A program made the translations under genes and the position numbers. 64,000 nt of DNA from Escherichia phage anhysbys, in the sequence record NC_052656.1, one strand, 5' to 3'. Below are positions 11,013 through 40,121 of this stretch, one piece after another. Position 1 is the first letter of the stretch. Every line of letters starts with the position of its first letter. The notes beneath the pieces are model-generated. The model did no database searches and was not told where the DNA came from. It saw only the letters and a list, made by a program, of their open reading frames with translations.

Positions 11013-11166
11013 GTCCTATACAAACCCTTGTCTTTTTCAGTTTGCATCACTAGGATTCGATCTGAGTGGGTTCCTGAAGGTCTGCCAATAAGATTAAAGG
11101 TTATCTCAAATTCCCATTACCTATTATCTCAAAAATCCCTCAAATTATTTAAACTTTTTAAGAATT

Positions 11167-11212
11167 TACAAAAGTGAAAGTTGAAAACCAAAATTTAAAG
11201 TTTAGGAAAATT
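11167..11212 (+). repeat. AT-rich ~45-bp direct repeat, copy 1
   Basis: TTACAAAAGTGAAAGTTGAAAACCAAAATTTAAAGTTTAGGAAAATT. Confidence 0.6.
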
Positions 11213-11303
11213 ATCTTAAAATGTTAGATACAAAACAAAACTCAAAAGTCAAGGAAAATTTTAAAAATTTTGCGCGCCCACAGTATTTAAAGTTTTTTTG
11301 CTT

Positions 11304-11350
11304 TTACAAAAATGAAAGTACAAAAGCAAAATTTAAAGTTTACAAAAATT
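11304..11350 (+). repeat. AT-rich ~45-bp direct repeat, copy 2
   Basis: TTACAAAAATGAAAGTACAAAAGCAAAATTTAAAGTTTACAAAAATT. Confidence 0.6.
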
Positions 11351-11389
11351 TATGCAGATGGGGATGAGAAGAGTTCTCATGTGGAAATG

Positions 11390-11470
11390 CAAATGATAAT
11401 GATTCGCATTTAGGTTTATAAATGAGAATGATTCTTATTTAATAAAGTAAATGATAATCATTCTCATTTA
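11390..11470 (+). promoter_or_regulatory. three tandem Fur-box-like 21-bp palindromic sites
   Basis: AAATGATAATGATTCGCATTT / AAATGAGAATGATTCTTATTT / AAATGATAATCATTCTCATTT, about 30 bp apart. Confidence 0.5.
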
Positions 11471-11727
11471 GAGAATGACGCGCAGGGGCGGTGTTTGTCT
11501 CGCGCTCCCGTGTCCCCTCGCCATGTAATAAGAATAACAGATCCAACCAGGAAAGCAAGCGATTATTTTATCTTTACATTTCTTTACGAATATATAGCGC
11601 CCAGCCTACCGGCGATCAACCTTCCAACCAGTGCCCCTGGTATGTTAGCCCCGCCTTTACGCCGTGGGGTGGCGCTTCCTCTTCTGTATGTAAAACAGTA
11701 TAAGCCCTATCCCTGGGCTTGTCAAGA

Positions 11728-11994
11728 TTATTTTTTGTTTTCTTGCCAGGTCAGGACACCTAGCCAAAAATGAATATCACCTTTTCCCCAATGTGGTATA
11801 TTGCTTTCTTTCCCACCTTCACGCGCCCAGGTAAAACCGCCCGTGTAACTTTGTAATTGATAACTATCCTCGACCTTATAATCTGATAGGTTGAGAACGG
11901 TTTCAACCTTTAAGCCCGTTGCGCTTGCTACCTGGTGTACCGTGCCGCCTTGCCAGCCCAATGAGTGCATAAGGTGTAATGTAGTAGTTGTCAT
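11728..11994 (-). CDS. hypothetical protein in GC-rich island (doubtful)
   Basis: ORF track 88 aa; atypical GC-rich composition; isolated on minus strand. Confidence 0.25.
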   Translation of the reverse strand: MTTTTLHLMHSLGWQGGTVHQVASATGLKVETVLNLSDYKVEDSYQLQSYTGGFTWAREGGKESNIPHWGKGDIHFWLGVLTWQENKK

Positions 11995-12104
11995 GGTATC
12001 GCCCTTTCTTTGTTGTGCGCCCTGGTTGGCGCGGTAGAAAGATGATAGCCTTTTCCTTTATATATAGCAAGCAAAAAGAAAATAAAAAAGATTGAAAAAG
12101 TGGT

Positions 12105-12132
12105 TGACGTTCCTCACCTGGTAGCGTAGTAT
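12105..12132 (+). promoter_or_regulatory. candidate promoter for first gene of plus array
   Basis: TTGACG-16-TAGTAT; ~130 nt leader to ATG 12268. Confidence 0.4.
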
Positions 12133-12267
12133 TCATCTTGTCGAGGGGGGCGCGGCACAACGACAATAAACAACAGGAGGGCGCAATGTAGGACGGGCAA
12201 AGGTGAGGATCTCCATAATCCACCGTCAACCAACAAAAAACATCATTCATCACCTGGAGTTAAAATC

Positions 12268-12465
12268 ATGGCAACATTGCACATAGTAGCGAAAGCAGGA
12301 CAAATCAGCGTCGTGGTAAACGGTTTTACTGAGTTCAGTCATCCCCAGGATGATCATGAAACGGTTTTATCTTTCATTGATTCCCTGTTAGAAATGGGAG
12401 TCATTACAGAAGACCAGCACGCTACAAAGTGCAAGCGCGTTAATCAAATTGCAGGGATAGAATAA
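12268..12465 (+). CDS. hypothetical protein
   Basis: ORF track 65 aa; GGAG RBS; first gene of plus array. Confidence 0.5.
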   Translation: MATLHIVAKAGQISVVVNGFTEFSHPQDDHETVLSFIDSLLEMGVITEDQHATKCKRVNQIAGIE

Positions 12466-12471
12466 AAAGTA

Positions 12472-12530
12472 TTGACAACAAACAACAACCTGATAAGATG
12501 TATCACATAGGGCGGGAAGTGGTTTCCCGC
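12472..12530 (+). promoter_or_regulatory. promoter + 5' stem-loop cassette (PeSL-like)
   Basis: TTGACA, -10 TAAGAT, then GCGGGAA-GTGGT-TTCCCGC hairpin before gene 12556. Confidence 0.6.
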
Positions 12531-12555
12531 TCGTAACAGAAGAGAGATTATCATC

Positions 12556-12828
12556 ATGGCATCATATAGCGCAACAATGATCGTAGCTGGCACAACTGGT
12601 AAACCTATGAGCGGTGGCGGATCTTTCGCTAATATCAACATTGACGGGCGTTTATCCCTGGACGCAGCGATCACCGTGGCGCGGGAAACATTTAAGAAAG
12701 AATGTAAATTCAATAAACAAGATTATCTCGGTTTCGCTATTGAAAAAACCGCGCGTTTTGTTGATTATAAAAGCCCAAAAATGGTTGATACTACACTAAA
12801 AGCGCAAGATGTAGCGTTTTTGCTTTAA
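12556..12828 (+). CDS. hypothetical protein
   Basis: ORF track 90 aa; preceded by promoter/stem-loop cassette. Confidence 0.6.
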   Translation: MASYSATMIVAGTTGKPMSGGGSFANINIDGRLSLDAAITVARETFKKECKFNKQDYLGFAIEKTARFVDYKSPKMVDTTLKAQDVAFLL

Positions 12829-12831
12829 GGC

Positions 12832-12886
12832 TTGACATTAACGAATAATTTGTTAATATGTTACATAAAGCGGGAATAGTTCCCGC
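12832..12886 (+). promoter_or_regulatory. promoter + 5' stem-loop cassette
   Basis: TTGACA, TTAATAT, GCGGGAA-TAG-TTCCCGC. Confidence 0.6.
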
Positions 12887-12904
12887 TATTTGTAAGGTGG
12901 TAGA

Positions 12905-13162
12905 ATGTTTTACATCAAATTAAAAGGTCACGTGATCGCGTTCAAAGATAACGCTTTTTACAGATTAGCAAAATATGCGTTAATACATCCCCACTATGTT
13001 TATATAAGGGGGCGTGATGAAATAAATATCTTTGATCAAACAACATGCGAGAACATCGAGATCCGCAAGGTTGGCGTACGTGATTATCGTACATCTTTCT
13101 ACCCTTGCAAGGATTCAGCAAGTCTTTTTAAAGTATGCCAATTGTTGAAAAAAGGTGGTTAA
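12905..13162 (+). CDS. hypothetical protein
   Basis: ORF track 85 aa; cassette upstream. Confidence 0.55.
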   Translation: MFYIKLKGHVIAFKDNAFYRLAKYALIHPHYVYIRGRDEINIFDQTTCENIEIRKVGVRDYRTSFYPCKDSASLFKVCQLLKKGG

Positions 13163-13721
13163 TATGGGCCGCGAATATGTGATCCAGTCTTGGGTAAAAC
13201 ATGAAGCAGATGATCCGCGCATCGTTCCCGATCATCTTATCGATGAATCCACGGGATATAGCGGTGAGCAAATAGGTAACAGATTAGCACGTAGTAACGG
13301 CAACGTAAAAGCGCGTTATGTGCGCCCTGGTTGGCTGGCAAATGGTAACGCTGATTTATCCAGTGCGGAAGATGCGAGCGACGGCGCGAAAGATAATCCT
13401 TTGTACAAAATTGATCCGGCTTTTCGTGTCCTGGATGAATACCCCAGCAAGATAGCGGCGCTTGATGAAGCTCTGGAAAGTAAGCGCATCACCTGGACCG
13501 CTTACAACATGGCAAAAAACGTACTTGATGGTAAATTGATTCAAGCCGAAAGAAAATTAGCCAAAATTGCAGCCATAGCCCAGGAGGAAGACGAGGAGAC
13601 AACGGAAGAGGAAGAGTACGAAGAGATCCCGCCGTTGTTGTGTGTTGATGCTTTTCCTGATTATCAGCCGACAGAGGAAGAAAAAAGGATCGCACTAGAA
13701 AACTTTGAAAATAGTCTTTGA
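13155..13721 (+). CDS. hypothetical protein with acidic C-terminus
   Basis: ORF track 188 aa. Confidence 0.6.
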   Translation: MVNMGREYVIQSWVKHEADDPRIVPDHLIDESTGYSGEQIGNRLARSNGNVKARYVRPGWLANGNADLSSAEDASDGAKDNPLYKIDPAFRVLDEYPSKIAALDEALESKRITWTAYNMAKNVLDGKLIQAERKLAKIAAIAQEEDEETTEEEEYEEIPPLLCVDAFPDYQPTEEEKRIALENFENSL

Positions 13722-13775
13722 CATATCGCCGCCACTGGCATAATATTTACCACGTAGGGCGGCAATGGTGCCGCT
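13718..13775 (+). promoter_or_regulatory. promoter + 5' stem-loop cassette
   Basis: TTGACA, CATAAT, GGCGGCA-ATGG-TGCCGC. Confidence 0.6.
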
Positions 13776-13783
13776 CATAGTGA

Positions 13784-13879
13784 AATTATGCAAGAGGTTT
13801 ACAATGATTAATAAAGAAAATAGCTTGACGGTTGGAACGATTAACGCTATCATTTTCGCCGTTCCATTTTGGGTTGTAG
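13784..13879 (+). CDS. tiny hydrophobic protein (~31 aa)
   Basis: Own translation MINKENSLTVGTINAIIFAVPFWVVVAAIIF; sits between two cassettes. Confidence 0.4.
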
Positions 13880-13887
13880 TAGCGGCT

Positions 13888-13949
13888 ATTATTTTCTAAA
13901 AAATATTCTTGACAACGTTTTTTAATCTGATAAGATGTATCACATAGGG
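13888..13949 (+). promoter_or_regulatory. promoter + 5' stem-loop cassette
   Basis: TTGACA, TAAGAT, GGCGGCGGAA-TAC-TTCCCCGCC. Confidence 0.6.
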
Positions 13950-13989
13950 CGGCGGAATACTTCCCCGCCAAAACAAAAAGGGTAACACA

Positions 13990-14352
13990 ATGAGCAAGCA
14001 AATTAATACTATCATGTTTAATCTGGTATCTTTCCGCGACGATATGAAAAATTTACCACGTGAAACGGTTGATATTCATGTTTCAGCTTATCGCGCCCTT
14101 ATTGACATGTTACCGCTAAAACGTGATCAATATGCCGCTAACACGATGCTTAATGCTATGCTTAAAAAGATGATTCAAACGGATCTCACCCTAGCGTATG
14201 AGTATCAAGGGCGCTTATATGCAACTTATAACAAGGCGGTACCTGGTCTGGGAAGTACCGAAGAGTTGCACGGCTTAAACCTGGATCAAAACACTTGGGA
14301 TAGTATGCGCCGCGTTATGGTATGGGCCGAAAGCGGTAAAATTTACGAATAA
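13990..14352 (+). CDS. hypothetical protein
   Basis: ORF track 120 aa; cassette upstream. Confidence 0.6.
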   Translation: MSKQINTIMFNLVSFRDDMKNLPRETVDIHVSAYRALIDMLPLKRDQYAANTMLNAMLKKMIQTDLTLAYEYQGRLYATYNKAVPGLGSTEELHGLNLDQNTWDSMRRVMVWAESGKIYE

Positions 14353-14358
14353 AAACGG

Positions 14359-14417
14359 TTGACACTGTTTAAACTTCTGGTATAGTTTACCACATAGGGC
14401 GGGAAGTGGTTTCCCGC
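14359..14417 (+). promoter_or_regulatory. promoter + 5' stem-loop cassette
   Basis: TTGACA, TATAGT, GCGGGAA-GTGGT-TTCCCGC. Confidence 0.6.
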
Positions 14418-14440
14418 CAACAATGAAAAAGGTTATCATC

Positions 14441-14806
14441 ATGGCTATTAATATTAATGTTTCCGCTTATGCTACCCTGGCTGCCACGGCTAAAATTGAA
14501 TTGTCCAGCATTGAGGCGGTGCACATTAGCGCCCGTCGCTGGTTTCAACAGTCTTACGGTAACACATATTTTTCTTTAATGGTTGACGTTGAGATCGGCG
14601 GTAAACTGATCGAGGTGGTTAACGTTCCGTTTCAATATGGCTATGGTGATCATTTTGATACCGTCGCCCTGGAAGAATTTAGCAAGGTTATTAATATGGA
14701 AGGTAAAGAGTTTTCACGCGGCGCGTATCTTTCCCGTTTTTGCCGTGACAATGGGATCACTGTATACAGTCATGCGAGCGATGTTAAACGTAAAAAAGAT
14801 TTATAA
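14441..14806 (+). CDS. hypothetical protein
   Basis: Track frame 14423-14806; start refined to MAININ (pattern ..ATCATCATGGC shared with other array genes). Confidence 0.6.
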   Translation: MAININVSAYATLAATAKIELSSIEAVHISARRWFQQSYGNTYFSLMVDVEIGGKLIEVVNVPFQYGYGDHFDTVALEEFSKVINMEGKEFSRGAYLSRFCRDNGITVYSHASDVKRKKDL

Positions 14807-14813
14807 AAAGCAT

Positions 14814-14872
14814 TGACAGCACGAATAAAAAGAGTAAACTGTATTACATAGAGAGCGGGAACACTTCCCGCC
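14814..14872 (+). promoter_or_regulatory. promoter + 5' stem-loop cassette
   Basis: TTGACA, TAAACT, GCGGGAA-CAC-TTCCCGC. Confidence 0.6.
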
Positions 14873-14895
14873 TCACTGAAAAAGAGAGAAAAATC

Positions 14896-15135
14896 ATGGC
14901 TAAATCTAAAATGTACAACGGTCACAAAAACAAAACTCATTGGAATGTAAACCTTTGGATTAATAACGATGAATCGTTATACCGGTTGGCCCAAGATTTT
15001 ATTAACGCTAATGCTAATCGTAATGATGCGGCGCGGGATATGATGCTTTTTCTGGAACAAACTGGACAAGATAAAACGCCAGACGGTTTCAAATATAGCA
15101 CTACTGCGATCCGTGCCGCGATGGTTGGAATGTAA
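14896..15135 (+). CDS. hypothetical protein
   Basis: ORF track 79 aa; cassette upstream. Confidence 0.6.
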   Translation: MAKSKMYNGHKNKTHWNVNLWINNDESLYRLAQDFINANANRNDAARDMMLFLEQTGQDKTPDGFKYSTTAIRAAMVGM

Positions 15136-15144
15136 TAAAAACAG

Positions 15145-15203
15145 TTGACAACGTTTAAAATTAGTGTAAGATGTATCACATAGGGCGGGAAGTGGTTTCC
15201 CGC
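15145..15203 (+). promoter_or_regulatory. promoter + 5' stem-loop cassette
   Basis: TTGACA, TAAGAT, GCGGGAA-GTGGT-TTCCCGC (same as 12472 copy). Confidence 0.6.
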
Positions 15204-15225
15204 CAAAACAGAGAGATTAAAGATT

Positions 15226-15453
15226 ATGGCTATCAATATTGTTCGCGTATCTGGCACCGTTGGCACTTCCCAGGTCATTGCCGTTGTAACAAACAAAAAG
15301 ATTAATGATGTATGTGAGATCTTGAATAAGTGGGCTGTTGCTAATTTTGGGGAATATGCAAGCGTTGAGTACATCGAATCCTACCAGGTGCCAACCATCA
15401 GCCTAACCGATCTCAACGTTGATCGCCTGTTATGCCTGGACGAATTAATCTGA
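15226..15453 (+). CDS. hypothetical protein
   Basis: ORF track 75 aa; cassette upstream. Confidence 0.6.
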   Translation: MAINIVRVSGTVGTSQVIAVVTNKKINDVCEILNKWAVANFGEYASVEYIESYQVPTISLTDLNVDRLLCLDELI

Positions 15454-15462
15454 AAAAGATTG

Positions 15463-15519
15463 TTGACACCGGAAAGAAAAAGAGTAAACTGTATTACGTA
15501 GGGCGGCAATGGTGCCGCT
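15463..15519 (+). promoter_or_regulatory. promoter + 5' stem-loop cassette
   Basis: TTGACA, TAAACT, GGCGGCA-ATGG-TGCCGC. Confidence 0.6.
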
Positions 15520-15543
15520 CACAACAGAAGAGAGATTATTACG

Positions 15544-15759
15544 ATGGCCAATATCCGCACACTGTTAAAAAATGCAAGTCAAGTTTTATTTTCAGATGAC
15601 GAGTATTTCAATAAAGACATTACAGGCGTAAAAAATCTTAAAGATGTAAAGGATGTGATAGGTATTCGCGGATCTTTACGTAAAGGTGACTACTACGGCA
15701 ATAAAGTACAATATAAATTAAATCAGTCTTATGATTTTACTTTGACAATTATTTCATAA
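15544..15759 (+). CDS. hypothetical protein
   Basis: ORF track 71 aa; cassette upstream. Confidence 0.55.
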   Translation: MANIRTLLKNASQVLFSDDEYFNKDITGVKNLKDVKDVIGIRGSLRKGDYYGNKVQYKLNQSYDFTLTIIS

Positions 15760-15764
15760 AACCG

Positions 15765-15827
15765 CTTGCAATCTTAATAAAATAAAGTAAACTGTATTAC
15801 ATCAAGGCGGCGGAATGGTCCACCGCC
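15765..15827 (+). promoter_or_regulatory. promoter + 5' stem-loop cassette
   Basis: CTTGCA, TAAACT, GGCGGCGGA-ATGG-TCCACCGCC. Confidence 0.55.
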
Positions 15828-15851
15828 TAACAAAGAGAAGAGGAAAACACC

Positions 15852-16019
15852 ATGATCACTTTCGCTACCCGTGAAGCCGCTCGCAACGTTGCCCGTAAAG
15901 TTAACGCCGCCAACCTGGGCGCTACGTTTAAAGCACCTGTAAAAGATGAATCAGGAAAATGGATCTTCCCTGGTCTGCGTCACGCTGATAAGCTAGGCAC
16001 TTTAAGCCTTAAAAAATAA
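15852..16019 (+). CDS. small hypothetical protein (~55 aa)
   Basis: Own translation MITFATREAARNVARKVNAANLG...; cassette upstream; shares 5' leader and first codons with 16094 gene. Confidence 0.45.
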   Translation: MITFATREAARNVARKVNAANLGATFKAPVKDESGKWIFPGLRHADKLGTLSLKK

Positions 16020-16022
16020 TCG

Positions 16023-16059
16023 TTGACTTTTCGTTATAGCGCCTTATAATGGGCGCTAT
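16023..16059 (+). promoter_or_regulatory. near-consensus sigma70 promoter with -10 inside a palindrome
   Basis: TTGACT-16-TATAAT; inverted repeat ATAGCGCC-TTATAATG-GGCGCTAT encloses -10. Confidence 0.6.
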
Positions 16060-16093
16060 AGAGAAGAGAAACCACTACTGACAAGGAAACACC

Positions 16094-16315
16094 ATGATCA
16101 CTTTCGCTATTGTCGCCGTTGTTGCTGGTCAAGTTTACGTAAACGATACATTCACCACAGAAGACAAGGCCGCAGGAGATATAACCGCCGTTTACAACGA
16201 GTGCAAGGCAGTAGAAAGGATGTTAGCGCCTTGTATGTTAATGAGTGAACGCCAGGACGGGATAACAGTGTTTACTAACATTGAGACAGGGTACCAAATG
16301 GTAGTAACAAAATAA
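16094..16315 (+). CDS. hypothetical protein
   Basis: ORF track 73 aa; TTGACT-16-TATAAT promoter upstream. Confidence 0.55.
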   Translation: MITFAIVAVVAGQVYVNDTFTTEDKAAGDITAVYNECKAVERMLAPCMLMSERQDGITVFTNIETGYQMVVTK

Positions 16316-16318
16316 AGC

Positions 16319-16375
16319 TTGACACGGATTTAATTTTCAGTAAACTGTTACACGTAGGGCGGGAATAGTTCCCGC
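16319..16375 (+). promoter_or_regulatory. promoter + 5' stem-loop cassette
   Basis: TTGACA, TAAACT, GCGGGAA-TAG-TTCCCGC. Confidence 0.6.
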
Positions 16376-16393
16376 TAAAAAGAGAGAAAAACC

Positions 16394-16747
16394 ATGAAAG
16401 CACAAAATGCAATTAAAGAGTACATCCTTGCCGCTATCGATTTTAATGATTACGGTATTACAACCGAAAAAGAGAAGATCGCGGAATTGATGCGCCGTTT
16501 TAATTCCGAGTACTGGTACCCTGATAACCAATCACGTTTTAATTATAGTATTGTTAAAGCACTTGCATCATGGTTACAAGGTTTGCCATCAGATATTAAT
16601 ATCGCTTTCGAATATTGGGAAATTGATCGCTTGTTAACATCCTGGGGATACATTAAAGAGAATAGCAGCGATGATAAAATCCAACGAGAAAGGGAAAATT
16701 ATTGGCTTTATATTGCAGGCGTGATCCTTGCTTGCTCTTATGAATGA
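16394..16747 (+). CDS. hypothetical protein
   Basis: ORF track 117 aa; cassette upstream. Confidence 0.6.
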   Translation: MKAQNAIKEYILAAIDFNDYGITTEKEKIAELMRRFNSEYWYPDNQSRFNYSIVKALASWLQGLPSDINIAFEYWEIDRLLTSWGYIKENSSDDKIQRERENYWLYIAGVILACSYE

Positions 16748-16753
16748 TAAACC

Positions 16754-16807
16754 TTGACAATTTTACAAAACAGTTTAAATTAATAATATAGCGGCAATGG
16801 TGCCGCT
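16754..16807 (+). promoter_or_regulatory. promoter + 5' stem-loop cassette
   Basis: TTGACA, TAATAA/AATATA, GCGGCA-ATGG-TGCCGC. Confidence 0.55.
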
Positions 16808-16826
16808 CATATAAAGAGGAAACAAA

Positions 16827-16973
16827 ATGAATACATCTAATCGCGCAGAAAAAATCCAATCTTCCAAGATCCGCAAGGCCTGGAACGAGGAAGTGATCCG
16901 CAAAGGCGACAAGCGCAATAAAACAAAGCGCGGGAAGAGTGACAAATATAATTGGATGGATTTAGAGGATTAA
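16827..16973 (+). CDS. small basic protein (~48 aa)
   Basis: Own translation MNTSNRAEKIQSSKIRKAWNEEVIRKGDKRNKTKRGK...; cassette upstream, terminator downstream. Confidence 0.45.
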   Translation: MNTSNRAEKIQSSKIRKAWNEEVIRKGDKRNKTKRGKSDKYNWMDLED

Positions 16974-16979
16974 CATAAC

Positions 16980-17007
16980 AAGGGCGCACCAAGCGCCCTT
17001 TCTTTTT
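16980..17007 (+). terminator. rho-independent terminator
   Basis: AAGGGCGC-ACCA-AGCGCCCTT + TCTTTTT. Confidence 0.7.
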
Positions 17008-17028
17008 ACATGTAGAGGATAAACAAAG

Positions 17029-17214
17029 ATGACTTTAAGCGAGCTTAAAACAGCCTACAACGCAACGTTAAAAATAGCCGTGCGTTACCGTGATGCGTAC
17101 GGTTTTATCGCGCAGGGCGTGATCCTGGGCTTTTCTGACGATGGTTTGATCTATGTTGATGCACATTATAACAAGGTAAAACCTGAAAACGTCATTAGCA
17201 TAAAATATCTTTAA
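17029..17214 (+). CDS. hypothetical protein
   Basis: ORF track 61 aa. Confidence 0.5.
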   Translation: MTLSELKTAYNATLKIAVRYRDAYGFIAQGVILGFSDDGLIYVDAHYNKVKPENVISIKYL

Positions 17215-17220
17215 AAGTGG

Positions 17221-17280
17221 TTGACACCATAACCGGACCTGTTAAACTGTATTACATCAGGCGGGGAATAGTTCCCCACC
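17221..17280 (+). promoter_or_regulatory. promoter + 5' stem-loop cassette
   Basis: TTGACA, TAAACT, GCGGGGAA-TAG-TTCCCCAC. Confidence 0.6.
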
Positions 17281-17299
17281 ATACAAAAAGGTAAATATT

Positions 17300-17506
17300 A
17301 TGATCACCGCAAAACAAGAGAAAATCATTATCGACGTTGCAGCCGTTGCCGCTATTGCTATTATTGGATCTTATTATGATACCCGTTTCCCGTCGGCTAT
17401 GCATGAGATCGCCGCCGTTGCATCAGTTGGCGTACTGTTTTACGTTGGTAAACGCTATTTATCACCAATGATTAACAAGCTGACACCGTGGAAAAATAAA
17501 GGTTGA
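17300..17506 (+). CDS. small membrane protein
   Basis: ORF track 68 aa; hydrophobic IIIDVAAVAAIAIIGSYY / AAVASVGVLFYVG. Confidence 0.55.
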   Translation: MITAKQEKIIIDVAAVAAIAIIGSYYDTRFPSAMHEIAAVASVGVLFYVGKRYLSPMINKLTPWKNKG

Positions 17507-17557
17507 TCCTGTTTTATATTGTGTTATAGTTATCGTGTAGGGCGGCAATGGTGCCGC
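17503..17557 (+). promoter_or_regulatory. promoter + 5' stem-loop cassette
   Basis: TTGATC, TATAGT, GGCGGCA-ATGG-TGCCGC. Confidence 0.55.
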
Positions 17558-17577
17558 GCCCCTTTGAGGATGCAATC

Positions 17578-17862
17578 ATGAGTAAAGCTAACACCGTGCT
17601 AATGTTTTCCCTGATTAATGATCCCGCTTACTTGTCCAACATGACGCAGGAGGGTAACACATTAACGGCAACATTCACCAATAAGCTTGACCGGGTGATC
17701 ATCATCTCACTGAAAACAGTTAGTAAAGGCTTTTACTCGTTAGCTTATCATTGGATCACCGATACCGATGAGACAAGCCAGGACTATAGCGCCCCTTTCC
17801 CTGAATCAATGGCACGGGAGATCATCGCCGCCGTTGTAAATGATGGTTTGTTTACTGCATAA
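17578..17862 (+). CDS. hypothetical protein
   Basis: Track frame; start refined to MSKANTVLMF downstream of cassette. Confidence 0.6.
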   Translation: MSKANTVLMFSLINDPAYLSNMTQEGNTLTATFTNKLDRVIIISLKTVSKGFYSLAYHWITDTDETSQDYSAPFPESMAREIIAAVVNDGLFTA

Positions 17863-17880
17863 AATAATTTAGAAAAAGGC

Positions 17881-17937
17881 TTGCAATCATTTTGAGATAG
17901 TGTATATTTAATTCATAGGGCGGCGGGAATAGTTCCC
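17881..17937 (+). promoter_or_regulatory. promoter + 5' stem-loop cassette
   Basis: TTGCAA, TATATT, GGGAA-TAG-TTCCC. Confidence 0.55.
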
Positions 17938-17960
17938 AAAGCAAACGAGAGGATTACACG

Positions 17961-18080
17961 ATGAGCAAGTACACAGTAGAATACACGGTAGAAAATCCGG
18001 CAGTATCCGAAGGTAAAAAGATGACATTTGCCATCAGTATAATCGCTTTCGTTGTCACTATCTTATCAATCATCTTATAA
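17961..18080 (+). CDS. tiny membrane protein (~39 aa)
   Basis: Own translation MSKYTVEYTVENPAVSEGKKMTFAISIIAFVVTILSIIL; cassette upstream. Confidence 0.4.
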   Translation: MSKYTVEYTVENPAVSEGKKMTFAISIIAFVVTILSIIL

Positions 18081-18090
18081 GGTGCACACC

Positions 18091-18252
18091 ATGAAAACAA
18101 CAGATATTATCAAAGAGATCGCCCATGCCGCTGGCGTTGAGATCGAGGAAGTGATCGCGCTCAATCTTACAGAAAACGATCTGCGCAACTATGAAGCGGA
18201 AAGCGTGAAAGCAAGCGGCGCGGTCCTGGTATATGATCCGGCTAACAAGTAA
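18091..18252 (+). CDS. hypothetical protein
   Basis: Track frame 18052-18252; start refined to MKTTDIIKE after AAGGTG. Confidence 0.5.
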   Translation: MKTTDIIKEIAHAAGVEIEEVIALNLTENDLRNYEAESVKASGAVLVYDPANK

Positions 18253-18261
18253 GGGGATAAC

Positions 18262-18372
18262 ATGAATCCGAAAGATATGCAAGCATGGAAAGGGTACGAC
18301 GATCTAAGCGCCTTGCGCAATAAGTCAAGCCGTAACCTTAGACGGTTGGAAGCAAAGAAAAAGAAAAAATAG
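18262..18372 (+). CDS. tiny basic protein (~36 aa)
   Basis: Own translation MNPKDMQAWKGYDDLSALRNKSSRNLRRLEAKKKKK; AAGGGGA RBS. Confidence 0.35.
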   Translation: MNPKDMQAWKGYDDLSALRNKSSRNLRRLEAKKKKK

Positions 18373-18373
18373 T

Positions 18374-18430
18374 TTGACAAGTCCGCCTAGTCTGATAATA
18401 TGTATCTTGTAGGGCGGCAATGGTGCCGCT
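18374..18430 (+). promoter_or_regulatory. promoter + 5' stem-loop cassette
   Basis: TTGACA, TAATAT, GGCGGCA-ATGG-TGCCGC. Confidence 0.6.
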
Positions 18431-18450
18431 CACAAGAAGAGAGAAAAATC

Positions 18451-18735
18451 ATGAAAATCACAAAAAGCCTAACTAATTATGCAGCACGTCGCGGATTATG
18501 TTTAACCGTTGAAAACTTAGGGAAAGAAGACTTTTTGTGTTTTTGGGAGCTTGAAAATGATTGCGAGTGGATGTTTTCTTATTCTATCTGCGAAGATCAA
18601 AACGGTTGTTTGTTAACCTGGCGCGGTAATATCTATTTACCGGAAGAAATTAAAGAAGAGTTACCAGGTACGATCATGACAGAGAGACAGCTTAAGGAAA
18701 TGATTAATTTTGTAGGGCAAAACATTAAAAAATAA
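18451..18735 (+). CDS. hypothetical protein
   Basis: Track frame; start refined to MKITKSL downstream of cassette. Confidence 0.6.
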   Translation: MKITKSLTNYAARRGLCLTVENLGKEDFLCFWELENDCEWMFSYSICEDQNGCLLTWRGNIYLPEEIKEELPGTIMTERQLKEMINFVGQNIKK

Positions 18736-18736
18736 T

Positions 18737-18797
18737 TTGACAGCACGCAAACAACGTAGTAAAGTTTACCACATAGGGCGGCGGAATGGTCCACCGC
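18737..18797 (+). promoter_or_regulatory. promoter + 5' stem-loop cassette
   Basis: TTGACA, TAAAGT, GGCGGCGGA-ATGG-TCCACCGC. Confidence 0.55.
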
Positions 18798-18820
18798 TCA
18801 CAACAGAAGAGAAACAAATC

Positions 18821-18991
18821 ATGATCCCGACTATGTTTTATGTATCGCGCAAAGGTCACAATATTTTTTGGTCTGAAGATTTAAATGAAGCTATGACGTT
18901 TGCCCGTGATCGTGTTGCTATCGGTGGCGTTAACATCACCGTAACCGATGAAAATGGCATTGAATACTATAACGGCGACGATGAAGAATAA
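18821..18991 (+). CDS. hypothetical protein
   Basis: Track frame; start refined to MIPTMFYVSRKG downstream of cassette. Confidence 0.5.
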   Translation: MIPTMFYVSRKGHNIFWSEDLNEAMTFARDRVAIGGVNITVTDENGIEYYNGDDEE

Positions 18992-19038
18992 TTAATGAGG
19001 CGGGGGAGTATTCCCCGCCGTCAATAAAGAGGTAAATC

Positions 19039-19308
19039 ATGAAAATATCATTGGACGTTGCAATCAAGGCCATCGAATCCGGTTACATCCTGGTAAAAGA
19101 TGATAAGGCTAAAATAGTGCATCATGTTAACAAGGAAACAGGCGAAAGCATGATCACATATAAAGCCGCCTACTTTCTCCAATCAGTAGCAGATCCGCGC
19201 GTACAACGCCAGGTTATGGCGGCTATTGCTAAAAAATTATGTGCTTTACAGGGTACAAGTTTTAACGAGATCGCCCCGTGTTTTGAGTGGTCAAGCTTGA
19301 AAAAATAA
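19039..19308 (+). CDS. hypothetical protein
   Basis: ORF track 89 aa; GC hairpin upstream. Confidence 0.55.
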   Translation: MKISLDVAIKAIESGYILVKDDKAKIVHHVNKETGESMITYKAAYFLQSVADPRVQRQVMAAIAKKLCALQGTSFNEIAPCFEWSSLKK

Positions 19309-19309
19309 T

Positions 19310-19370
19310 TTGACAACAATTATAAATCGGGTAGAATGTATTTCGTAGGGCGGGGCAATAAAGCAACGCC
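19310..19370 (+). promoter_or_regulatory. promoter + degenerate 5' stem-loop cassette
   Basis: TTGACA-16-TAGAAT; GGGCG...CGCCC weaker stem. Confidence 0.5.
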
Positions 19371-19389
19371 CATTAATGAGGGTAGAATC

Positions 19390-19494
19390 ATGTTAGAGAA
19401 AATTTTCACGGTTGTAATAGTGGGCCTGGCGTTATCGGTTGGAGTGGTTGCAACTATGGCTAACATGATCCTATCTTCCCACGGTATCGGTTAA
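19390..19494 (+). CDS. tiny membrane protein (~34 aa)
   Basis: Own translation MLEKIFTVVIVGLALSVGVVATMANMILSSHGIG; cassette upstream. Confidence 0.35.
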   Translation: MLEKIFTVVIVGLALSVGVVATMANMILSSHGIG

Positions 19495-19504
19495 GGTGAA
19501 ACAA

Positions 19505-19720
19505 ATGATCACGAACAAAACAGGCAAAACGGAATTTTTACGCGGCTTACAAGTTGGTAAGCCTGAGATCTGGCATTGCACGAAGTCCGCGCATAATGAA
19601 ATGAAAGATTTTACCGCTACTTTACAACGTGTTAAAATATCTATCACACAGAAAAAAGCCTTGTTAGTAGTAGAAAACGAGATCCCGCAAACTATTATTA
19701 TTGTCGAGCGTACAGCATGA
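19505..19720 (+). CDS. hypothetical protein
   Basis: Track frame 19496-19720 (GTG) ; ATG at 19505 preferred. Confidence 0.5.
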   Translation: MITNKTGKTEFLRGLQVGKPEIWHCTKSAHNEMKDFTATLQRVKISITQKKALLVVENEIPQTIIIVERTA

Positions 19721-20103
19721 AAACAGAAATCATTATTGAAATCATCAACGGCTATAAAGAAGCCTTTATTTTTGCTGAATCAGCAAGGGATCATGAAGGT
19801 AATTTTATTGATAACTTAGACGATTATGATTTTTCTCCTAGCGCGGATCAACGGATCGCACAGGATGTAACAGCCTTTATTAATGCTAATCTTGCCGCTA
19901 TCTCTGAGGCAATGAGCGACGGCGCAACAGCCAACCAGATCGGGAATGATTTACATTTTACCCGTAACGGTCACGGCGTAGGCTTTTGGGATCGCCCTGA
20001 AATATACACCACTAACACGGCGAACCGCCTAACCAATGCAGCTAAGTTTATGCCGAACGTGTCGGCTTACGTTGGTGAAGATAATTTTATTTATATTGAA
20101 TAA
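19717..20103 (+). CDS. hypothetical protein
   Basis: ORF track 128 aa; ATGA overlap. Confidence 0.6.
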   Translation: MKTEIIIEIINGYKEAFIFAESARDHEGNFIDNLDDYDFSPSADQRIAQDVTAFINANLAAISEAMSDGATANQIGNDLHFTRNGHGVGFWDRPEIYTTNTANRLTNAAKFMPNVSAYVGEDNFIYIE

Positions 20104-20109
20104 AAAGTA

Positions 20110-20166
20110 TTGACACAGATCGCCAGTGTGCTAATATTTACCACGTAGGGCGGCAATGGTGCCGCT
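20110..20166 (+). promoter_or_regulatory. promoter + 5' stem-loop cassette
   Basis: TTGACA-16-TAATAT, GGCGGCA-ATGG-TGCCGC. Confidence 0.6.
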
Positions 20167-20187
20167 CCCCGAAAAAGGTAAAACATT

Positions 20188-20379
20188 ATGAAAACTATCA
20201 GCTACCTGGAATCGAATAACATGTTTTTTGCGCCCGTTGATGAAATCATCGAAGCATTAAACAACGAGGAAGGGATCAATGGTTTATCTTATAGCCAGCT
20301 TTTAGGAATGGTTGCAGCAAATGAGGAGCTTGCTTACTATGTTGAAAATTTTGATGAAGCTGTAATCTTTACAAAATAA
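20188..20379 (+). CDS. hypothetical acidic protein
   Basis: ORF track 63 aa; cassette upstream. Confidence 0.55.
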   Translation: MKTISYLESNNMFFAPVDEIIEALNNEEGINGLSYSQLLGMVAANEELAYYVENFDEAVIFTK

Positions 20380-20382
20380 TCC

Positions 20383-20439
20383 TTGATCTAATCTCTCAGA
20401 TAACTTATATTTAATGCGTAGGGCGGCAATGGTGCCGCC
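20383..20439 (+). promoter_or_regulatory. promoter + 5' stem-loop cassette
   Basis: TTGATC, TATATT, GGCGGCA-ATGG-TGCCGCC. Confidence 0.55.
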
Positions 20440-20457
20440 GATAATGAGGAAAACAAA

Positions 20458-20757
20458 ATGGAAACTATCGCTATTGTTACCGTAGAAAAACTGGTTGTTG
20501 GTGATGTATTCGCGTTAATGGTGCCTAACAGCAGCAAGCTGGGCGCTTATGAAGTAATGGATCATAAAAATGAATCATTTGGCGACGGTTGCACAATGGC
20601 GGTAAAATCTTTAAAGGATGGAATCATCCGCCAGGCTAACTGGCACAAAGGGAATCAAGTCGGTTTAATATCAGCTAATTTCTTGCCAGAAGAGCAAACA
20701 TTAGATCAACTATCAGGCGGTAAGACGTTAGCCGAACTACTGGAAACAGCGATCTAA
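20458..20757 (+). CDS. hypothetical protein
   Basis: ORF track 99 aa; cassette upstream. Confidence 0.6.
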   Translation: METIAIVTVEKLVVGDVFALMVPNSSKLGAYEVMDHKNESFGDGCTMAVKSLKDGIIRQANWHKGNQVGLISANFLPEEQTLDQLSGGKTLAELLETAI

Positions 20758-20810
20758 TCGACAAGGGGCGGCAACGCCCCCATTAAACGCAATAGGAAGA
20801 GGATAGACAC

Positions 20811-21095
20811 ATGAAAAAGATGATCGCAGTAGTTGCCCTGGTTGTTGGTATTAACGCGCCTGTAATGGCGAAAGAGTTGCCAGAATCCATCACGTTAACC
20901 GATATTAACGCAGTGAATCGGATCGGTGTTAATTATCGCCTATGCCTTGCCGCTAAAACTTTCCAGGACGGCACAACAGAGTACTACGGATTCGAGGGTA
21001 TCCGCTGCGGTGAGCTTTCACGCGACCTTAAGGAAGATCCAGACCTTGAGGCCATACCGATGACCGTAAACGGTAAAGCCCACGTAAACCGCTAA
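20811..21095 (+). CDS. putative secreted protein
   Basis: ORF track 94 aa; signal-peptide-like MKKMIAVVALVVGINAPVMA. Confidence 0.6.
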   Translation: MKKMIAVVALVVGINAPVMAKELPESITLTDINAVNRIGVNYRLCLAAKTFQDGTTEYYGFEGIRCGELSRDLKEDPDLEAIPMTVNGKAHVNR

Positions 21096-21097
21096 CC

Positions 21098-21232
21098 ATG
21101 AGAAAGGTAATCATCACAATGGGGATCGTAGTAGCAACGCTGGCGCTTATCCCTTTCATGGTTGAATATGTGCTGATTAATGTTGTCCTGGTAGTCAGTG
21201 ACCTATTGGAAACGGTTGGCACCTGGTTTTAA
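21098..21232 (+). CDS. tiny membrane protein (~44 aa)
   Basis: Own translation MRKVIITMGIVVATLALIPFMVEYVLINVVLVVSDLLETVGTWF. Confidence 0.4.
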   Translation: MRKVIITMGIVVATLALIPFMVEYVLINVVLVVSDLLETVGTWF

Positions 21233-21405
21233 GATAATAAATAGGGCTTGCAATAGTCCTATTTTTTGTTATACTTATTGAACGGGCGGCACCTGGGAGC
21301 AGGGGAAGATAATCACCGGAAGACCCCGCTATATATTGATAACTAACGCCTATCAAACAACAAAACATCAAAGGAACAAACTATCAAATCTTTACAATTC
21401 TACCT

Positions 21406-21467
21406 ATTGACACCGGATCACGCTTACATTATTATTTATCACGTAGGGCGAGCAATACAGCAAGCCC
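21406..21467 (+). promoter_or_regulatory. promoter + degenerate 5' stem-loop cassette
   Basis: TTGACA, ATTATT, GGGCGAGCAA...GCAAGCCC imperfect stem. Confidence 0.45.
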
Positions 21468-21484
21468 ACAAAGAGGAAAAGAAG

Positions 21485-21853
21485 ATGAGCAAATCAGCAA
21501 TTAAAGCAGTTGAAAAAGCGCAAGAAGTGATCGCAACGTCTACCACTGGCGCAAAGGTTAATCTGATCGGTTATCTGACAGATGAAACTATCCGTAAAAA
21601 TTGGCGTAATGCTGATTTACTGGCTTGCTTATTGATTAATAGTGTCGCTAATGCTTTCCAGTGTGAAACAGCCGAGAGCCTGGAGGAAAACTTGTTTGAT
21701 AATATGGATCAAGCCATTGAAACCTATATACAATCAAACCTGGATAGCTGGAACAGTAAAACATGGCCAGACAGTTTACGCGATACAACTGATCAACTGA
21801 TCCGCCTTGCCGTGATGGTTGAACGCGATAACGTTTACAACAGCACAAAGTAA
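21485..21853 (+). CDS. hypothetical protein
   Basis: Track frame; start refined to MSKSAIKAVEKAQ after AAGAGGAAAAG; terminator downstream. Confidence 0.6.
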   Translation: MSKSAIKAVEKAQEVIATSTTGAKVNLIGYLTDETIRKNWRNADLLACLLINSVANAFQCETAESLEENLFDNMDQAIETYIQSNLDSWNSKTWPDSLRDTTDQLIRLAVMVERDNVYNSTK

Positions 21854-21861
21854 GATTATAC

Positions 21862-21890
21862 AAGGGGCGCACCAAGCGCCCTTTCTTTTT
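21862..21890 (+). terminator. rho-independent terminator (same sequence as 16980 copy)
   Basis: AAGGGGCGC-ACCA-AGCGCCCTT + TCTTTTT at end of plus array. Confidence 0.7.
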
Positions 21891-22097
21891 GCCCGAACAA
21901 TGTTGATAGCTTTCGCCTATGAAAAACCGACACAGAACAAAATTGAATAAATCGCGGTATCGAGCTAATCAACCATTAAACGAATAACCATACCTCCCAG
22001 GGTAACAGGCTGTTAGAGAGCCATTTATAGCGGTTAAAATCGATCAACAACCAACAACAAACCATCAAAAACACCCTTTTACCTCCTTTCTAGTGCA

Positions 22098-22539
22098 ATG
22101 ATAACCATTATCATCTACCCATGATTATCTATGCAATATAAGCGCATAATTATAATGTTGATAATAGTTCGCAACAACTAACCAACAAACAACATAAAAC
22201 AAGAAGCAAACTAATCATAATCAAAGGAATAATAGCAAGATGATTGATAACGACAAACAATCAAACCATGATGAATACTAAGCAAGATAACGATAACACG
22301 ACAAAACAACCAACTAACGAACAATAACAAACGAAACCATTAAAATAATAACTATTGCCATAATAGTGACTGAATGAAATCATTACAAAACGAATCATTC
22401 CCAGGATCATCATTAGCACGCTATGCCGGACACATAGCGAGCTAATAATAAGCCAACTACACCCCAACAATCATAACCATCGGTGATGGTTATTTCTTGT
22501 TACTGCGTAGCTTGCAATAATTGCAAGCGTAATTACGCT
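22098..22539. repeat. cluster of perfect palindromes in ORF-free region
   Basis: ATGATAACCATTATCAT (22098), ATAACCATCGGTGATGGTTAT (22474), GCTTGCAATAATTGCAAGC (22510), AGCGTAATTACGCT (22526). Confidence 0.5.
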
Positions 22540-22732
22540 TACACTTATTGCGCTGGCTTATTATTAGCATTATATGTAATTACCAAGATCATAACATTAA
22601 CGCAATAACAATAATCATTGTAATGGTTACAATATGAAATCATTGGCAAGATGAATAATTGCACGTAGCAACATGAGCGAATAGCGACAGGTTGCATAGT
22701 GTGCACATAATAGAATAAAAGTCAATAATTTT

Positions 22733-22855
22733 GGGGGCGAAATGTTACCGCCACAGGCGGGAATGTTGAGCACTAAGAAAAGAGATAAACCTTAATCATG
22801 GGGGCGTAAATATCCGCAGGATTGCCAACGGCGATCCGGTAGGATGTTGAGCATC
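22733..22855 (+). repeat. two tandem related units beginning TGGGGGCG and ending GATGTTGAGCA
   Basis: Unit 1 ~22733-22775, unit 2 ~22799-22855; internal GC stems. Confidence 0.4.
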
Positions 22856-22923
22856 TTCTCTTAAACGTAAATAAAATCAGAAAATTCTTGATTTATTTTA
22901 GTTTTTATGTTAATAAACGTTTA

Positions 22924-22950
22924 AATAATAATCATTCTCATATGAATAAT
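22924..22950 (+). promoter_or_regulatory. Fur-box-like site
   Basis: AATAATAATCATTCTCATATGAATAAT. Confidence 0.4.
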
Positions 22951-23101
22951 AGTCTGCTTGTCATGAGCGGGATTAGTTGACATTGTTCCGTCATATGATG
23001 AGGTTGCCAACCTATTGATAAATAAGTGTTTGTGTGATTTATAATCAAGTGGCCCACCTTGTCGCTATGTTGGCATGAGCCTTGCATAAGTCATTGAATA
23101 C

Positions 23102-23130
23102 GAATGATAATTATTCTCATTCGCATGATA
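23102..23130 (+). promoter_or_regulatory. Fur-box-like site
   Basis: GAATGATAATTATTCTCATTCGCATGATA. Confidence 0.4.
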
Positions 23131-23462
23131 TTTGGGAATTGTCGCTGCGTGGACCTGACGGCCCGAAAATTCGCGTTAAGCACTTCTTACGTATGCGCCA
23201 TGATTTTTGCCATATGATATTGATTCTATTAGATATTCTTGCCATGATTGCCATGAAACAGGGTGTCCCGAAATAATCTCTCCCCGTAGATATTTTGGGT
23301 TACTTTTTATACAAGAGTGGGGTGTCAAAAATAATCGATATATATGGGATAATTGATAGGAATCCCCTATGGTAATTCGATTGTAATTGCCGAAGATTGA
23401 TCGTATGATGTTGGTGATTGATGATTGCCATGAAAGATGGCTAACGATGAGAGGAGATTGTC

Positions 23463-23807
23463 ATGCAAGAGAGTAAAAATGTTCCGTTAAGTAGTTTACG
23501 TCTAATGAAGTTTTACAAAGCTTGGCTTGCTGGTGAGGTAGAAGGTCACACAACGAGTGGTTTGTGCATATGTTTGATTAAGTATGTGGAGGGAACATAT
23601 CCTGATGAACTGTTACCTCGTCTACAACAAGAGATGAAATCCCAGTTTATTGGTGCAGGACTAGATTACAATTTTCCGTTTAATGAAGGTGGTTATGAGG
23701 AATACACCTTCGAACATAAAAAACATATTTGCCATAAAAACAAACATCGTATACAATGGGTGTTAGATAGAATTCAGGATTATGAAGGAGAGAAAAATGA
23801 CAAATAA
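23463..23807 (+). CDS. FY-WL/GLC/WVKDR family protein, paralog 1
   Basis: ORF track 114 aa; family motifs FYKAWL, SGLCICL, QFIGAGLDYNFPFN, RIQWVLDRI. Confidence 0.65.
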   Translation: MQESKNVPLSSLRLMKFYKAWLAGEVEGHTTSGLCICLIKYVEGTYPDELLPRLQQEMKSQFIGAGLDYNFPFNEGGYEEYTFEHKKHICHKNKHRIQWVLDRIQDYEGEKNDK

Positions 23808-24165
23808 TATTCCGTTGAGCAGTGCAGCATTGCTTCGCTTCTACAAAGCATGGATTGCCAACTATCCTGCAATGAATCGCACAACGAGTGGCTTATGTGG
23901 TTGTCTGGTAGATTATGTAGATGATTTTGTTGGTGAGACAACTAGAGAAGAAGATAGAAGATGGCGGGATAGTTTGTTAGACCGTTTGAAATATGAAATG
24001 AGGAAACAATTTACATGTGCAGGGCTGGACTACAATCTTCCGTTCAATGCAGATTGCATGGATTACCTTTCAGAGTGTATAAACTTGGCGTGTCATACCA
24101 ACACGTTACGTCTTCAATGGGTGAAAGATCGCATTGAAGATGCAAATAATGCTTGCATTGAATAA
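23797..24165 (+). CDS. FY-WL/GLC/WVKDR family protein, paralog 2
   Basis: Track frame; start refined to MTNNIPLSS; FYKAWI, SGLCGCL, LDYNLPFN, RLQWVKDRI. Confidence 0.65.
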   Translation: MTNNIPLSSAALLRFYKAWIANYPAMNRTTSGLCGCLVDYVDDFVGETTREEDRRWRDSLLDRLKYEMRKQFTCAGLDYNLPFNADCMDYLSECINLACHTNTLRLQWVKDRIEDANNACIE

Positions 24166-40111: not shown

Positions 40112-40121
40112 GGAGAAATAA

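Follow-up and report, generated by a model that had tools for sequence, protein, structure and literature searches.

Small genes and promoter cassettes at the locus

The DNA analyzed here is a stretch of 64,000 nucleotides (nt) from Escherichia phage anhysbys (NC_052656.1; the whole stretch is referred to below as the window), and the genes in question are very short open reading frames (ORFs) that encode hydrophobic peptides. Four of them, p1 (13804-13899), p2 (17961-18080), p3 (19390-19494), and p4 (21098-21232), lie in a cluster of small genes, and two more, p5 (6911-7075) and p6 (40121-40222), lie outside it; these and all of the genes and cassettes described below are on the plus strand. 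An earlier, sequence-only reading of the window had described unannotated micro-ORFs at six positions, each encoding a single transmembrane (TM) helix immediately downstream of its own promoter/stem-loop cassette. ORFs were found at or near all six positions, with the correction that 13784, given for the first of them, is not a start codon and that p1 starts at 13804.

The cluster spans about 9 kb (about 12.4 to 21.9 kb; mapped as 12472-21487) and contains 30 genes encoding 31 to 185 amino acids, together with 18 cassettes composed of a promoter, a stem-loop, and a ribosome-binding site. Nine of the genes encode fewer than 60 residues. Just four of these nine are hydrophobic, and the other five are hydrophilic; thus, the description of the tiny cluster ORFs as hydrophobic holds for four, and five hydrophilic micro-ORFs had been missed.

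A gap of 71 to 98 nt precedes 21 of the 30 genes, and 18 of these gaps contain a cassette of about 80 bp in which a sigma-70 promoter, a GC-rich hairpin, and a purine-rich leader with a ribosome-binding site precede the ATG, in that order. The -35 element is exactly TTGACA in 16 of the 18 copies, the spacer is 16 to 17 nt long, and the -10 box is TAAGAT, TAATAT, or TAAACT. About 19 plus-strand sites matched the promoter consensus at 10 or more of its 12 positions, and 47 promoter-like sites were counted on both strands, versus 25 ± 5 in shuffled sequences. The hairpin, which has the sequence C(A/G)TAGGGCGG..., occupies about positions +4 to +28 of the transcript, and in 17 of the 18 leaders its energy was -11 to -16 kcal/mol (z about -2 to -4), with stem sequences that differ from one copy to another. 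These values come from folds of the individual copies; the 3' arms are out of register across the 18-copy alignment. The hairpins uniformly lie downstream of the -10 box, within the transcript, and have no U-tract. Rfam searches of both strands of 11000-24000 found no family.

Bases 13000-22000 of the window matched 280 phage records, the best of which belonged to Escherichia coli phages of the genus Phapecoctavirus (Stephanstirmvirinae). These best matches were 94 to 97% identical to the query over about 94% of its length; they include vB_EcoM-P3322 and Mt1B1_P17, to which the identity was about 96 to 97%, and in both records the region consists of about 30 small one-strand genes labeled "hypothetical protein." Homology with Mt1B1_P17 breaks at 14411-14448, 16074-16089, 19302, 20165/20404, 20765-20780, and 21433-21450 through insertion, deletion, or replacement of genes, and all of these breaks are in or beside cassettes or hairpins. 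The lone break away from any cassette is at 18251-18253.

Coding status and hydrophobicity of the peptides

Hydrophobicity was expressed as the best 19-residue Kyte-Doolittle window (KD19), for which the TM threshold is about 1.6. The values for p1 to p5 were 2.45 to 2.69, well within the TM range. The expectation of single TM helices was wrong for two of the six peptides. One segment each is present in p1, p2, and p3, and p4 has one hydrophobic stretch of 40 residues; p5, however, has two segments, and p6 reaches a KD19 of just 1.19. In second-order Markov simulations of the region, 0.01 plus-strand ORFs of 25 to 59 residues with a KD of at least 2.5 were expected, versus three observed and a fourth at 2.48.

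The four cluster peptides occur in about 60 to 230 phage genomes across Stephanstirmvirinae, two of them (p3 and p4) also in Vequintavirinae. Selection was measured pairwise in eleven homologous loci. The proportion of nonsynonymous differences (pN) was lower than the proportion of synonymous differences (pS) in every comparison (pN/pS, 0.26 to 0.61), and the synonymous excess was significant in 9 of 11. Nei-Gojobori (NG86) ratios of nonsynonymous to synonymous substitution rates (dN/dS) ranged from 0.08 to 0.58, and the second codon position was the least changed. Reading frames and starts were preserved in the homologues, as were length and stops in most of them. Ribosome-binding sites lie 6 to 8 nt from the starts of p1, p2, p3, p5, and p6, and p4 has none. 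Together, these comparative data indicate that p1 to p4 are genuine conserved genes under purifying selection. The claim that the small hydrophobic ORFs encode real membrane peptides is therefore upheld, because they are conserved, have pN below pS, keep their length, and carry ribosome-binding sites.

An origin of adjacent ORFs by splitting or frameshifting of one gene was considered for the pairs p2/18091, p3/19505, and 20811/p4 and was rejected; the frames differ, and the same stops occur in distant relatives.

The four hydrophobic peptides of the cluster

The p1 gene is preceded by a cassette (13718-13803) that serves p1 alone, with a promoter that matches 10 of 12 consensus positions (TTGACA at 13718 and TAATAT ending at 13746), a hairpin of -15.1 kcal/mol at about 13757-13776, and AAGAGG at 13792-13797. 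Its 31-residue product, MINKENSLTVGTINAIIFAVPFWVVVAAIIF, consists of a polar N-terminal stub followed by one TM segment (KD19, 2.57), and the gene is monocistronic, the following cassette starting at 13909. The start is placed at 13804 because of the arrangement AAGAGG-N6-ATG and because the homologues in phi92 and a Serratia phage share this codon despite unrelated upstream DNA. In tblastn searches against 50,697 phage records, from which the distribution of all the peptides was determined, p1 matched 112 records, from the genera Phapecoctavirus and Justusliebigvirus, from a Serratia phage, and, weakly, from Klebsiella phages. Residues K-E-N...G-x-I-N-A...V-P-x-W are retained even in the Klebsiella copy, and in the comparison with Klebsiella phage KP13-26 pS was 0.77 and pN was 0.33 (p = 6e-4); the homologues of phi92 and KP13-26 are longer by a few residues. 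No PHROG family matched p1, and the exact peptide is present in NCBI.

The position of p1 differs in Justusliebigvirus, where it directly follows a leader that matches 12143-12230 of the window (phi92, 9900-10093; L008, 9001-9093). In the window, that leader precedes the first gene of the cluster (12268-12465). Because p1 directly follows the leader that opens the cluster in the window, the gene order suggests that it is probably the first cluster gene in Justusliebigvirus.

The p2 gene is the first of three cistrons and has a degenerate cassette (17881-17960) with the promoter TTGCAA-16-TATATT, a weak hairpin, and the ribosome-binding site GAGAGGA. Its product, MSKYTVEYTVENPAVSEGKKMTFAISIIAFVVTILSIIL (39 residues; KD19, 2.69), has the layout of a tail-anchored protein, in which a polar N-terminus of 20 residues (YxVxYxxxNPAxxxG+) is followed by a C-terminal TM segment of variable sequence. 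The N-terminus is identical at 13 of 20 positions to that of Salmonella phage PMBT28 and at 10 of 20 to that of phage muut, versus 7 of 19 and 5 of 19 in the TM segment. PMBT28 is a 48-kb phage of another type, and its copy is 51% identical overall (E = 1e-5), with a pS of 0.83 and a pN of 0.37 (p = 1e-5). There were 164 tblastn records for p2, of which about 60 were convincing. The peptide matched phrog_10979, "membrane protein," over its full length (E = 5.9e-23), and it is called "membrane protein" in RefSeq relatives. A collection of 5.8 billion proteins, searched with one Met added to the query to reach 40 residues, yielded just four near-identical clusters. A 12-nt tandem duplication (17970-17993) produces YTVE-YTVE within the conserved N-terminus. 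The two downstream cistrons (18091-18372) encode hydrophilic products of 53 and 36 residues, have their own AAGG-type ribosome-binding sites, and belong to phrog_35944 and phrog_31652, neither of which has a known function.

The p3 gene is likewise the first of three cistrons. Its cassette (19310-19389) contains TTGACA-16-TAGAAT, which matches 11 of 12 consensus positions, a hairpin of -15.0 kcal/mol, and the ribosome-binding site GAGGG. The 34-residue product, MLEKIFTVVIVGLALSVGVVATMANMILSSHGIG, has one TM segment (KD19, 2.48) and is most conserved in its C-terminal half, ATM(A/S)N(M/V)ILSS(H/N)GIG, with 13 of 17 positions identical versus 4 to 6 of 17 in the N-terminal half. It matched 227 phage records, Vequintavirus included at 50 to 56% identity, as well as phrog_14631 over its full length (E = 1.7e-22). 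In the comparison with rV5_ev156, pS was 0.62 and pN was 0.26 (p = 0.0015). An exhaustive HMMER search over 1.84 billion cluster representatives gave two matches, both of them phage copies. The downstream cistrons (19505-20103), encoding 71 and 128 residues, match phrog_5988 and phrog_1915, of unknown function, and the order of p3 and the 71-residue gene is kept in FV3, rV5_ev156, and isim, which include rV5-type phages.

The p4 gene follows a gene for a 94-residue protein (20811-21095). The p4 ATG lies 2 nt past the stop codon of this partner (TAAccATG), the gene itself has neither a promoter nor a ribosome-binding site, and a TAAnnATG junction is also found in FV3 and rV5_ev156. Because of the missing ribosome-binding site, the 2-nt junction, and the occurrence of the same junction in those two phages, translation of p4 is probably coupled to that of the 94-residue gene. 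The product, MRKVIITMGIVVATLALIPFMVEYVLINVVLVVSDLLETVGTWF (44 residues; KD19, 2.59), ends in a conserved acidic C-terminus, SDLLETVGT. It was found in 157 phage records, Vequintavirus included at 70 to 80% identity, is always accompanied by the 94-residue gene, which it directly follows in FV3, rV5_ev156, and phiWec186, has a pN/pS of 0.26 to 0.41, and matches phrog_16005 over its full length (E = 8.6e-30). A hairpin with a T-run that resembles an intrinsic terminator (21239-21264) closes the p4 unit and is conserved in FV3. The partner has a signal-peptide-like N-terminus (MKKMIAVVALVVGINAPVMA, then KE) and two conserved Cys residues and belongs to phrog_9845, of unknown function; save for one truncated match, none of its homologues is less than 81% identical. 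An AlphaFold model of the partner (predicted local distance difference test score, pLDDT, 78) has a small fold of three strands, a helix, and a strand, for which no fold match in the PDB was found at E <= 0.001.

Two further peptides and additional features of the region

Both peptides outside the cluster are encoded by operon genes without a cassette. The p5 gene (6911-7075), with the strong ribosome-binding site AAGGAG, encodes 54 residues with hydrophobic segments at about 1-23 and 31-53; it matches phrog_27459 over its full length (E = 1.4e-38), and 394 contigs encode an identical peptide. The p6 gene (40121-40222), the last gene before a hairpin, has a strong ribosome-binding site and encodes 33 residues, consisting of a hydrophobic N-terminus of 14 residues, which falls short of a full TM segment, and a charged amphipathic tail; it matches phrog_11666 over its full length (E = 1.4e-12). 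The assignment of a promoter/stem-loop cassette to every peptide was accordingly right for p1, p2, and p3 and wrong for p4, which is a probably coupled second cistron, and for p5 and p6.

The five hydrophilic micro-ORFs of the cluster (15852-16019, 16827-16973, 18091-18252, 18262-18372, and 18821-18991) encode 36 to 56 residues, some of them very basic (e.g., ...RRLEAKKKKK), and all fall below the 60-residue limit of the ORF track supplied with the sequence. Equivalents are annotated in Mt1B1_P17, and both of those scanned (18091-18372) are in PHROG families. Two GC-rich hairpins are not part of cassettes; one, at 20765-20780, lacks a T-run and lies ahead of the signal-peptide gene, and the other, at 16980-17000, is terminator-like and follows a basic ORF of 48 residues. 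Minus-strand ORFs in the cluster were not accepted as genes, since they correspond to the opposite strand of cassettes or of TM-coding segments; most repeat the complement of the cassette, which shows in the recurring motifs PPYV and GTIAAL.

Six 19-bp palindromes resembling Fur boxes (AATGATAATcATTCTCATT) were found at 11392-11468, 22097-22115, 22924-22942, and 23103-23121, versus a chance expectation of 0.31. Three of the six are in tandem with a spacing of 29 bp, and all are in two ORF-poor stretches that flank the small-gene cluster. They resemble the E. coli Fur consensus, GATAATGATAATCATTATC, and might mediate control by iron or act as decoys that titrate host Fur.

Matches to the window also include about 19 GenBank entries titled "Campylobacter phage" (host Campylobacter jejuni; e.g., MG065650.1), one of them at 96% identity, and entries titled as "Acinetobacter" and "Pseudomonas" phages. 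All of these probably carry wrong host labels or come from contaminated samples.

Annotation in related phages

The peptides are already in public databases, and the observation is a rediscovery of annotated hypothetical genes. Their description as unannotated was true merely with respect to the ORF track of at least 60 residues; five of the six are in PHROG families, matched over their full length with E values of 1e-12 to 1e-38, and NCBI or UniRef contains identical copies of five of the six. In relatives, the counterparts of p1, p2, and p4 carry annotations. Annotation is patchy, with no feature over p1, p3, or p4 in about half of the tblastn rows sampled. Many GenBank records skip p1 (e.g., the phi92 RefSeq record and phAPEC8), and p3, which falls between annotated coding sequences in Mt1B1_P17 and P3322, is unannotated in both, including the RefSeq record of Mt1B1_P17.

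The gene table of phage rV5 lists gp170 (44 residues) and gp173 (46 residues) as "membrane protein, 1 TMD," with gp171 (94 residues) beside gp170 and gp172 (71 residues) beside gp173 (Kropinski et al. 2013, Table S3). These two proteins resemble p4 and p3 in size, neighbors, and order, and the Vequintavirus copies of the peptides are 50 to 80% identical. By this comparison, which was drawn via rV5_ev156 and the sizes, order, and spacing of the genes (2 nt between gp171 and gp170), gp170 and gp173 are apparently the homologues of p4 and p3, and gp171 and gp172 are apparently those of the partners.

Resemblance to known systems

In T4-type phages, the ORFans of hyperplastic regions are preceded by promoter-early stem-loop (PeSL) cassettes (Arbiol et al. 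2010, PMC2839356; Comeau et al. 2014, PMC4122927), for which a terminator role has been shown. The cassettes in the window resemble PeSLs in the order of their elements (a stop codon in an AT-rich stretch, a sigma-70 promoter, a GC-rich stem-loop, a ribosome-binding site, and a small ORFan), in being present in many copies in one plastic region, and in having breakpoints of indels and replacements in or beside them, a behavior described for PeSLs (PMC2839356). They differ in two respects: the phage belongs to Stephanstirmvirinae and is not a T4-type myovirus, and the hairpin lies inside the transcript, downstream of the -10 box, without a U-tract. For these reasons the cassettes, which work like PeSLs, are not classed as PeSLs here. 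Given the position of the hairpin in the transcript, downstream of the -10 box, and its lack of a U-tract, a role as a 5' stabilizer of mRNA is at least as likely as a terminator role.

Tiny hydrophobic proteins are familiar in phages and in their hosts. T4 Imm (83 residues), Sp (97 residues), and Ac (51 residues) and SPO1 gp56 are small membrane proteins that are made early; their genes have promoters of the host type and are clustered with other tiny accessory genes, and the proteins act on the envelope in superinfection exclusion, efflux, or cell division. The matches found by tblastn came from rV5-, phi92-, and phAPEC8-type phages and one Salmonella phage; no T4-type phage was among the matches listed, and Pfam searches for homology to Imm or Sp gave no match beyond noise at E <= 10. 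The host proteins AcrZ, MgtS, and KdpF are single-pass inner-membrane regulators of 30 to 50 residues that bind larger membrane proteins. The peptides are like these and like tail-anchored proteins in size, in their single pass, and, for p2, in layout, without homology to them.

Interpretation and rival explanations

The best explanation of these observations, and one that we regard as quite probable, is that the peptides are products of bona fide Phapecoctavirus genes, namely, inner-membrane microproteins encoded on PeSL-like, shufflable cassettes. In the corresponding model, the cluster would be the early host-takeover region, in which strong sigma-70-type promoters drive p1, p2, and p3; host RNA polymerase would transcribe the cluster genes immediately after infection, the 5' hairpin would stabilize the mRNA or attenuate read-through, and the peptides would insert into the inner membrane. 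The 20-residue cytoplasmic N-terminus of p2 would be tethered there and displayed to a cytoplasmic or peripheral-membrane partner, a role that is probable for p2 since its conserved part is the N-terminus and not the TM segment. In p1 and p3, the TM helix contains or ends in conserved residues that are polar or break helices (Asn, Pro-x-Trp, and ATMANxILSS), and these two peptides may engage in specific helix-helix binding within the membrane. For p4, joint action with the exported 94-residue partner would be probable.

Several points weigh against this explanation. Membrane character was judged from Kyte-Doolittle profiles and the positions of charges, and the putative early timing of the cluster genes was deduced from the promoter consensus and analogy. 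The p2 cassette has a promoter that matches just 9 of 12 consensus positions and a hairpin (-7.8 kcal/mol; z = -0.3) that is no better than shuffled sequence, and two of the three pN-versus-pS comparisons for p1 are individually nonsignificant. Literature searches found no expression, translation, or localization data for these genes and no transcriptomics, ribosome profiling, or functional work on them in rV5-, phi92-, or phAPEC8-type phages. Finally, there is no characterized homologue of the peptides in PHROG, Pfam, or the large protein collections or of the partners in PHROG, Pfam, or, for the 94-residue protein, by fold: Pfam gave nothing above noise for all six peptides, none of the PHROG families that they match has a known function, and all of the operon partners are unknown in both databases.

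The ORFs might instead have arisen by chance in intergenic DNA that is rich in A and T, as frames that need not be translated, since U-rich codons encode hydrophobic residues. Hydrophobic frames are indeed common here, with a KD19 of at least 1.6 in 54 of 281 six-frame ATG-initiated ORFs of 25 to 59 residues, among them "shadow" ORFs antisense to p1 and p4, and the minus-strand ORFs mostly repeat the PPYV and GTIAAL cassette complement. This explanation is nevertheless extremely improbable, and for p1 to p5 it is refuted by the comparative data: frames are kept down to 53 to 65% nucleotide identity with pN below pS, starts are conserved where the upstream DNA is unrelated and ribosome-binding sites are present, the full-length PHROG profile matches are strong, and the three ORFs with a KD of 2.5 or more, plus the one at 2.48, far exceed the Markov expectation. 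Very unlikely, too, is the notion of leader or "spacer" ORFs, in which the act of translation opens or couples a downstream cistron and the peptide itself is functionless. The positions of p2 and p3, each 10 nt upstream of a further cistron, and the coupling of p4 to its upstream gene would fit; however, no cistron lies between p1 and the next promoter, the genes downstream of p2 and p3 carry their own AAGGTG ribosome-binding sites, and phi92 keeps p3 though its usual downstream partner is absent. Purifying selection also acts on the residues themselves, as seen in the conserved N-terminus of p2 and C-termini of p3 and p4.

Membrane-damaging peptides, similar to type I toxins or to holins and antiholins, which would serve host shutoff or the timing of lysis and would not bind a specific target, are an unlikely alternative. 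The peptides resemble Hok, TisB, Ibs, and Ldr-type toxins and pinholins in size and hydrophobicity, and p6 gave a weak, nonsignificant match to the holin family phrog_24402 (E = 0.091). Against this, PHROG and Pfam contained no significant match to a toxin or holin family, Rfam detected no antisense or antitoxin RNA in the 11- to 24-kb region, and the genes lie in a sigma-70 promoter cluster whose scanned neighbors are of unknown function and are not lysis genes. The conserved polar motifs in or near the membrane likewise suggest specific contacts rather than generic damage.

With the peptides taken as inner-membrane microproteins, an accessory manipulation of the host envelope, through superinfection exclusion or by blocking a membrane protein of the host or a membrane-bound defense, can be put forward tentatively as the likeliest role. 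The suggestion in the sequence-only reading that such peptides target host membrane machinery (division, transport, or superinfection exclusion) is plausible. This functional step is a guess by analogy with T4 Imm, Sp, and Ac and with SPO1 gp56, because neither the peptides nor their partners have homology to characterized proteins. It is more doubtful that at least one of the peptides specifically inhibits an inner-membrane machine of the host or a membrane-bound antiphage system. The best candidates could be p1, a 31-residue peptide that has an entire consensus promoter to itself and a conserved intramembrane Asn and Pro-x-Trp, and p2, whose conserved cytoplasmic NPA-containing motif is common to an otherwise unrelated 48-kb Salmonella phage.

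Implications

The practical value of the analysis lies in the corrected start of p1 and in the identification of p1 and p3 as genes that many GenBank and RefSeq entries for these phages, which are phage therapy candidates, leave out. Locating the conserved parts of the peptides narrows the hypotheses to a tethered cytoplasmic peptide for p2 versus intramembrane helix-helix contacts for p1 and p3. Should one of them prove to act on a defined membrane target in the host, it would join the short list of phage microprotein inhibitors and would provide a ready-made probe of 30 to 40 residues. That PeSL-like cassettes occur in a phage outside the T4-like group makes a small evolutionary point about the shuffling of tiny genes.

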